Shown: piece after piece, positions 30,117 to 31,520 of the stretch | How positions within the stretch are numbered: the first letter of the stretch is position 1 | Layout of the letters: each line of letters starts with the position of its first letter | Source of the DNA: Escherichia coli | GTDB taxonomy: Bacteria; Pseudomonadota; Gammaproteobacteria; Enterobacterales; Enterobacteriaceae | NCBI RefSeq assembly: GCF_003334335.1 | Contig: NZ_QOWQ01000024.1 | Direction: 5' to 3' (one strand) | DNA: 64,000 bases | Position numbers and translations under genes: made by a program | Notes under the pieces: generated by a model | What the model saw: only the letters and a program-made list of their open reading frames with translations | Database searches by the model: none | Told to the model about the DNA's origin: nothing

Positions 30117-31520
30117 ATGAATCAACAGGATATTGAACAGGTGGTGAAAGCGGTACTGCTGAAAATGCAAAGCAGTGACACGCCGTCCGCCGCCGTTCAT
30201 GAGATGGGCGTTTTCGCGTCCCTGGATGACGCCGTTGCGGCAGCCAAAGTCGCCCAGCAAGGGTTAAAAAGCGTGGCAATGCGCCAGTTAGCCATTGCTG
30301 CCATTCGTGAAGCAGGCGAAAAACACGCCAGAGATTTAGCGGAACTTGCCGTCAGTGAAACCGGCATGGGGCGCGTTGAAGATAAATTTGCAAAAAACGT
30401 CGCTCAGGCGCGCGGCACACCAGGCGTTGAGTGCCTCTCTCCGCAAGTGCTGACTGGCGACAACGGCCTGACCCTAATTGAAAACGCACCCTGGGGCGTG
30501 GTGGCTTCGGTGACGCCTTCCACTAACCCGGCGGCAACCGTAATTAACAACGCCATCAGCCTGATTGCCGCGGGCAACAGCGTCATTTTTGCCCCGCATC
30601 CGGCGGCGAAAAAAGTCTCCCAGCGGGCGATTACGCTGCTCAACCAGGCGATTGTTGCCGCAGGTGGGCCGGAAAACTTACTGGTTACTGTGGCAAATCC
30701 GGATATCGAAACCGCGCAACGCTTGTTCAAGTTTCCGGGTATCGGCCTGCTGGTGGTAACCGGCGGCGAAGCGGTAGTAGAAGCGGCGCGTAAACACACC
30801 AATAAACGTCTGATTGCCGCAGGCGCTGGCAACCCGCCGGTAGTGGTGGATGAAACCGCCGACCTCGCCCGTGCCGCTCAGTCCATCGTCAAAGGCGCTT
30901 CTTTCGATAACAACATCATTTGTGCCGACGAAAAGGTACTGATTGTTGTTGATAGCGTAGCCGATGAACTGATGCGTCTGATGGAAGGCCAGCACGCGGT
31001 GAAACTGACCGCAGAACAGGCGCAGCAGCTGCAACCGGTGTTGCTGAAAAATATCGACGAGCGCGGAAAAGGCACCGTCAGCCGTGACTGGGTTGGTCGC
31101 GACGCAGGCAAAATCGCGGCGGCAATCGGCCTTAAAGTTCCGCAAGAAACGCGCCTGCTGTTTGTGGAAACCACCGCAGAACATCCGTTTGCCGTGACTG
31201 AACTGATGATGCCGGTGTTGCCCGTCGTGCGCGTCGCCAACGTGGCGGATGCCATTGCGCTAGCGGTGAAACTGGAAGGCGGTTGCCACCACACGGCGGC
31301 AATGCACTCGCGCAACATCGAAAACATGAACCAGATGGCGAATGCTATTGATACCAGCATTTTCGTTAAGAACGGACCGTGCATTGCCGGGCTGGGGCTG
31401 GGCGGGGAAGGCTGGACCACCATGACCATCACCACGCCAACCGGTGAAGGGGTAACCAGCGCGCGTACGTTTGTCCGTCTGCGTCGCTGTGTATTAGTCG
31501 ATGCGTTTCGCATTGTTTAA
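30117..31520 (+). CDS. eutE: CoA-acylating acetaldehyde dehydrogenase
   Basis: 467-aa ORF of the aldehyde dehydrogenase family with an N-terminal amphipathic extension. Confidence 0.95.
   Translation: MNQQDIEQVVKAVLLKMQSSDTPSAAVHEMGVFASLDDAVAAAKVAQQGLKSVAMRQLAIAAIREAGEKHARDLAELAVSETGMGRVEDKFAKNVAQARGTPGVECLSPQVLTGDNGLTLIENAPWGVVASVTPSTNPAATVINNAISLIAAGNSVIFAPHPAAKKVSQRAITLLNQAIVAAGGPENLLVTVANPDIETAQRLFKFPGIGLLVVTGGEAVVEAARKHTNKRLIAAGAGNPPVVVDETADLARAAQSIVKGASFDNNIICADEKVLIVVDSVADELMRLMEGQHAVKLTAEQAQQLQPVLLKNIDERGKGTVSRDWVGRDAGKIAAAIGLKVPQETRLLFVETTAEHPFAVTELMMPVLPVVRVANVADAIALAVKLEGGCHHTAAMHSRNIENMNQMANAIDTSIFVKNGPCIAGLGLGGEGWTTMTITTPTGEGVTSARTFVRLRRCVLVDAFRIV

Follow-up and report, generated by a model that had tools for sequence, protein, structure and literature searches.

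Encapsulation peptides (EPs) decide which enzymes enter bacterial microcompartments, and they are used as tags for synthetic nano-reactors. An EP is defined as an amphipathic helix of 15-20 aa joined to a poorly conserved linker and present on compartment-associated homologues (Kinney/Aussignargues, PMC4594438). In EUT1 loci, the aldehyde dehydrogenases carry the EP on their N-terminus (PMC4594438). The nearest described case is that of Salmonella, in which removal of eutE residues 2-21 spreads EutE evenly through the cytosol and prevents growth on ethanolamine (PMC12487888, Sci Adv 2025). Both ITC and NMR show the Salmonella EutE 1-20 peptide binding to EutQ, at residues 63-99. The corresponding EutC 1-20 peptide binds EutQ with a Kd of 6.35 µM and EutE 1-20 binds more weakly; L89 and V93 of EutQ are essential for EutC 1-20 binding, with further contributions from E64, R67 and Q75 (PMC12487888). 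A passage in PMC5405515 that cites Jakobson 2015 and Quin 2016 also reports that GFP reaches Eut compartments when it is fused to the N-terminal 20 aa of EutE. The EutE EP is therefore already known, having been predicted and experimentally tested in Salmonella; the literature we searched yielded no experiment on the E. coli EutE peptide itself.

The window analysed here is a 64,000-nucleotide stretch of E. coli DNA that contains a 17-gene eut operon in the order eutSPQTDMNEJGHABCLKR, running without interruption from 26063 to 40948 between maeB and hemF, with eutB directly after eutA (36387/36399). All five shell genes lie in this operon, as does the cargo-loading set formed by the EutE EP, the EutC EP and EutQ (Table 1), and EutE is thus encoded together with shell genes and EutBC. 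The 467-codon ORF at 30117-31520 (+) is E. coli eutE (467 aa), and its DNA is 100% identical to annotated eutE in many RefSeq E. coli genomes. Its product opens with MNQQDIEQVVKAVLLKMQSSDT, the translation of the first 22 codons (30117-30182, +). These are exactly the N-terminal letters given in the initial annotation, which had read the segment as consistent with an EP and as present and intact in this strain. The gene is found in 5410 of 5426 complete E. coli genomes, and the 66-nt stretch encoding the first 22 residues (30117-30182) in 5408, with at least 99% identity in 4975 of 5409 matching records. EutG, encoded in the same operon, begins with MQNELQTALFQAFDTLNLQ at 32357; according to PMC3299773, its N-terminal extension did not direct GFP to Eut compartments.

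Table 1. Positions in the window of the segments of eutE and of the operon elements discussed with them.
Feature	Positions	Strand	Evidence
Predicted EP helix, EutE residues 1-18 MNQQDIEQVVKAVLLKMQ	30117..30170	+	AlphaFold2 helix, conserved motif, identity with Salmonella
Flexible linker, EutE residues 19-30 SSDTPSAAVHEM	30171..30206	+	Low pLDDT, low identity, variable length
EutE catalytic core, CoA-acylating acetaldehyde dehydrogenase, residues 31-467 and stop codon	30207..31520	+	PF00171, NF011927, PDB
eutQ, adaptor gene	26865..27566	+	88% identity to Salmonella EutQ, EP-binding residues conserved
EutC residues 1-19, second EP of the operon	37781..37837	+	Identical to the Salmonella EutC 1-19 signal
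eutM, major hexameric shell protein; candidate alternative or additional EP docking surface	29418..29711	+	AMVKAA and second groove motif

The limits of the catalytic core are marked consistently by domain and structural alignments. The Pfam Aldedh domain (PF00171) spans EutE residues 34-422 (E = 3.8e-30), and homologues in the PDB start to align at residues 21-37, the closest of them (5JFL/5JFM, 6GVS and 4C3S) at residues 21-28, with E values of 1e-113 to 1e-118 for 5JFL and 4C3S (5JFL 5e-118). Because these alignments begin only there, the first ~30 residues lie beyond the catalytic core as a genuine extension; the initial annotation, too, had set the N-terminal segment before the core. AdhE, which is not a compartment enzyme, agrees with this boundary, its residue ~10 aligning with EutE residue ~37. 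The NCBIfam model NF011927 covers EutE residues 1-467 with 738 bits against a cutoff of 403, and EutE is thus a full-length EutE/PduP-type CoA-acylating aldehyde dehydrogenase (EUT1 locus) above the curated cutoff. At the other end, the protein stops at the conserved core (...VLVDAFRIV), without a C-terminal extension.

An AlphaFold2 run on a 51-sequence alignment of EutE (mean pLDDT 93.9) places a helix at residues 3-18, with mean pLDDT values of ~83 over residues 1-10 and 65 over residues 11-20. Residues 19-26 are disordered in the model (pLDDT <50), and the confident core starts from about residue 29-34. The span originally claimed for the EP therefore holds for the helix, whereas residues 19-22 (SSDT) are part of the linker. 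In a helical-wheel projection, I6, V9, V10, V13, L14 and M17 form a hydrophobic stripe within a 140-degree arc (80-220 degrees), opposite D5, E7, Q8, K11, K16 and Q18, while L15 and A12 lie off this face. The alternation of hydrophobic and charged residues described previously is not what the sequence displays; its hydrophobic residues form a heptad-like stripe with i, i+3, i+4, i+7, i+8, i+11 spacing. EutE accordingly possesses a short, terminal, predicted alpha-helix of ~15-20 aa, followed by a poorly conserved linker of small and hydrophilic residues, as the published definition describes.

General amphipathicity is a poor guide to this helix. The Eisenberg hydrophobic moment of EutE residues 4-17 is 0.43, which is not significant against shuffled sequences (p = 0.12; 0.12 to 0.28 for the peptide as tested overall) and ranks 74 of 454 among windows of the same protein. 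With so modest a moment and a shuffle p of 0.12, an argument from the amphipathic pattern alone is unconvincing, and we dropped the moment as proof of an EP, since it is neither significant against shuffles nor out of the ordinary within EutE. At the level of sequence, support for a putative EP is to be found in a conserved motif and not in general amphipathicity.

This motif is evident at two evolutionary distances. In enterobacterial EutE orthologues (79-93% identity) the helix is nearly invariant, and the segment that follows it varies in sequence and length (8-21 aa) up to the start of the core at GVF(A)SLDDAV; averaged over pairs of these orthologues, identity reaches 0.69 in the helix and 0.85 in the core but falls to 0.18 in the linker. 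Searching 1.84 billion cluster representatives yielded 57 full-length EutE homologues at 30-52% identity, and in 50 of these 57 distant sequences the N-terminal extension is 20 aa or longer. The pattern PHI-x-x-PHI-PHI-x-x-PHI-PHI is much more frequent in the family than chance would give: 38 of the 50 extension-bearing homologues have it, always starting at residue 6-16, against a background of 4.2% in shuffled N-termini and 6.5% in 35-aa windows of the core. The aligned consensus reads (I/L/V)-D-E-x-x-I-x-x-I-V-x-x-V-(V/L)-x-x-L, with which EutE agrees at all of the hydrophobic positions. The linkers of the homologues are 8-39 aa long and consist of 41% G/A/S and 12% P. An alignment of microcompartment-associated EutE orthologues had been put forward as a check on the proposed EP, and it leaves the proposal standing: the extension is present in all enterobacterial orthologues examined and in most of the distant compartment-linked homologues.

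The genomic context of the homologues connects the extension to microcompartments. All four of the motif-bearing homologues sampled adjoin PF00936/PF03319 shell genes, and their loci are of more than one type. We also looked up the context of four representatives without an extension. Two of them, P0167 and P0220, sit on contigs of 6.6 kb and 9.9 kb without shell genes, and the contig of a third (P0182) is too short to provide context. The fourth, P0217, is a 441-aa aldehyde dehydrogenase of the EutE/PduP family with neither an N- nor a C-terminal extension, whose gene lies immediately downstream of BMC-H and EutN/CcmL genes (L004:76-2005; GCA_017413645.1, JAFPSV010000243.1); a PocR sensor kinase gene and a PTAC gene are also among its neighbours. 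It is an EP-less compartment-linked enzyme, possibly a paralogue or a piggy-backing cargo. A clean split, in which an extension marks a compartment locus and its lack marks a gene outside one, was therefore not retained: it mostly holds, with presence on compartment homologues and absence from non-compartment ones (AdhE, P0167 and P0220), but is not absolute, as P0217 breaks the rule. The extension is strongly associated with compartment loci, yet the EP is not obligatory for the enzyme family, because P0217 adjoins shell genes without one. Aussignargues et al. 2015 likewise describe rare EP-less paralogues as well as C-terminal EPs in EUT2/EUT3 loci (PMC4594438).

One compartment locus recovered in this survey (L009:1-19111; Logan SRR22387810 contig 4527) contains the EP-bearing aldehyde dehydrogenase P0158 alongside three BMC-H genes, four consecutive EutN/CcmL genes, PTAC and an RnfC-like protein. 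Further products of the locus are two glutamine-synthetase-like proteins, a GATase_6 / GXGXG / Glu_synthase trio resembling N-methylglutamate synthase, an ornithine-cyclodeaminase-like protein, acetate kinase and DUF6885. This locus may represent an amine-utilising type of metabolosome.

The same evidence bears on whether the extension is a targeting signal at all. The annotated start could be wrong, with translation in truth beginning at Met17 or Met30, or the helix could be a generic part of the fold; in-frame ATG codons do occur at eutE codons 17 and 30, and the hydrophobic moment is not significant by itself. However, protein-level conservation of residues 1-17 extends throughout Enterobacterales and, in recognisable form, across phyla, which would be unexpected for untranslated sequence, and NF011927 aligns from EutE residue 1. 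The non-compartment homologues AdhE, P0167 and P0220 are without the extension, and the Salmonella deletion phenotype likewise speaks against an artefact (PMC12487888). The ATG at 30117 is the earliest start possible past the in-frame upstream stop; it lies 11 nt 3' of the eutN stop codon and is preceded by an AAGG Shine-Dalgarno-like element. Both alternative starts were rejected on the grounds of conservation. We find a non-targeting extension scarcely credible, and an annotation artefact is effectively excluded.

Comparison with Salmonella links these observations to experiment. In Salmonella enterica Typhimurium, the closest known system (compared through a Salmonella eut locus, L010, on the contig encoding P0023), EP residues 1-17 of EutE (MNQQDIEQVVKAVLLKM) are identical to those of E. 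coli EutE, and the gene occupies the same operon position after eutN, with the same linker-plus-core architecture in its product and the same EutQ partner. Salmonella EutE differs at residues 18, 19 and 21-26 (E. coli QSSDTPSAA vs KDSSQPAST), all of them in the linker or where the helix ends, and 7 of the 32 amino-acid differences between the two proteins fall in residues 18-30. The adaptor is similarly well matched. EutQ in the window is 88% identical to Salmonella EutQ, whose E64, R67, Q75, L89 and V93 are conserved as E68, R71, Q79, L93 and V97, the offset of +4 residues arising from a four-residue insertion in the flexible linker.

The EutQ linker is itself variable. The 233-aa EutQ of the window has a tandem SVPA-SVPA at residues 57-64 (27033-27056), just upstream of the EP-binding region. 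Other E. coli/Shigella EutQ alleles are 229 aa long with a different linker (ATVSVPVEK), and Salmonella EutQ also has 229 aa. Comparison of the alleles therefore reveals a polymorphism of both length and sequence in the linker of the adaptor.

Taken with the sequence criteria of PMC4594438, the results obtained with a Salmonella orthologue whose residues 1-17 are identical support the encapsulation role that the initial annotation had proposed. We assign a probability of roughly 0.9 to the reading that EutE residues ~3-18 act as an EP, which docks on EutQ and delivers EutE to the Eut lumen. By analogy, the peptide would be expected to behave in this E. coli strain as it does in Salmonella, although residues 18, 19 and 21 are unlike those of Salmonella (QSSD vs KDSS) and quantitative behaviour may not carry over.

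A mechanism can be proposed on this basis. EutE residues ~3-18 would fold as a short helix with one hydrophobic face (I6, V9, V10, V13, L14 and M17), tied to the acetaldehyde dehydrogenase core by a flexible linker of ~10 residues. During biogenesis of the Eut microcompartment, this face would dock on the N-terminal domain of EutQ (residues 63-99 in Salmonella, with L89 and V93 critical). EutQ would in turn bind the shell, so that EutE is coupled to the assembling shell and ends in the lumen, where the flexible linker would let the tetrameric enzyme pack. Lumenal EutE would then turn the acetaldehyde made by EutBC into acetyl-CoA.

The helix might instead bind the shell directly, at the hydrophobic groove between tessellating EutM hexamers or at the C-terminal helix of a shell protein, leaving EutQ dispensable or secondary. 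Such a model has been proposed for PduP, PduD and PduL with PduA/PduJ, and a section of PMC11157265 discussing Fan et al. relates that mutating E7, I10 and L14 of PduP (E7, V10 and L14 in EutE) abolishes encapsulation. EutM in the window carries AMVKAA and a second groove motif, which are described as the EP-binding site of PduA (PMC11157265), and recombinant EutS or EutSMNLK shells capture EutC 1-19-EGFP without EutQ (PMC3299773). Against this, deletion of eutQ in Salmonella separates the cargo (EutB/E/G) from the shell, and EutQ is a direct binding partner of both the EutE and the EutC peptide (PMC12487888); moreover, the groove model was tested for Pdu only, and partly in silico. We consider direct shell binding unlikely as the main route, while giving it some weight.

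Nor is the helix necessarily specialised for binding a receptor: its main function could be the self-association of cargo into a pre-shell enzyme core or condensate, with receptor targeting secondary. Full-length EutE-sfGFP forms a polar aggregate in Salmonella when other Eut proteins are absent, which the authors credit to the EP, and EutE co-aggregates with EutB and EutG in eutQ, eutL and eutM deletion mutants (PMC12487888). On the other hand, truncated EutE is evenly cytosolic while other cargo still assembles, and the EP has a mapped binding site on EutQ (PMC12487888); aggregation and receptor binding can coexist. Self-association as the primary role appears to us improbable. Both of these alternatives are complementary to docking on EutQ, which we retain as the preferred account.

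The 5' end of eutE is also unusually conserved at silent sites. Codons 1-17 (30117-30167) show a single silent difference from Salmonella (L010:10001-10051) in 15 degenerate codons. The silent difference rate over the whole gene is 37.6%, and the lower rate in codons 1-17 has a nominal binomial P of 0.008; one other region of eutE, around codons 145-165, is as conserved at silent sites. RNA structure over the start was considered as a cause and rejected, the fold of 30085-30185 having a non-significant z of -0.85. There is a slim chance that codons 1-17 are under a second constraint at the nucleic-acid level, in addition to the peptide code and related to translational coupling with eutN or to EutE stoichiometry, or else that the E. 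coli-specific residues 18-21 tune EutQ affinity, and with it cargo loading, differently from those of Salmonella.

Ethanolamine use is an advantage for enteric pathogens in the inflamed gut, and, judged from its gene content, the cargo-loading system of the strain is complete and presumably works, comprising the EutE EP, the EutC EP, EutQ and the shell genes. The result for the EutE EP confirms known biology and adds none; its minor by-products are the statistics of the motif across the family and P0217, a compartment-linked homologue that has no EP.

Finally, the EutE extension can be set beside the EPs of related enzymes and of its own operon. The PduP EP (P18) belongs to a homologous enzyme, its representative P0204 being 38% identical to EutE. 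The PduP-type extension MNTAELETLIRTILSEKL has the same length and register as that of EutE (MNQQDIEQVVKAVLLKMQ), and E7, I10 and L14 of PduP line up with E7, V10 and L14 of EutE. The two differ in their partners and destinations: PduP is reported to dock on the shell proteins PduA/PduJ and serves the propanediol-utilisation microcompartment, whereas for the EutE peptide, which serves the Eut one, the reported partner is the adaptor EutQ. EutC 1-19, from the same operon, shares with EutE 1-20 about 35-40% of positions, a comparable stripe (I6, I9, V10, V13, M14 and M17) and the same EutQ binding site, and in the window its sequence matches, residue for residue, the validated Salmonella EutC 1-19 signal given in PMC3299773. 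It differs in sitting on an unrelated enzyme, of which EutC is a part as the small subunit of ethanolamine ammonia-lyase, with a much longer linker and a higher affinity for EutQ than EutE 1-20. Lastly, the aldehyde dehydrogenases of EUT2/EUT3 and GRM loci belong to the same family as EutE and bear an EP of the same helix-plus-linker kind, but at the C-terminus (PMC4594438).
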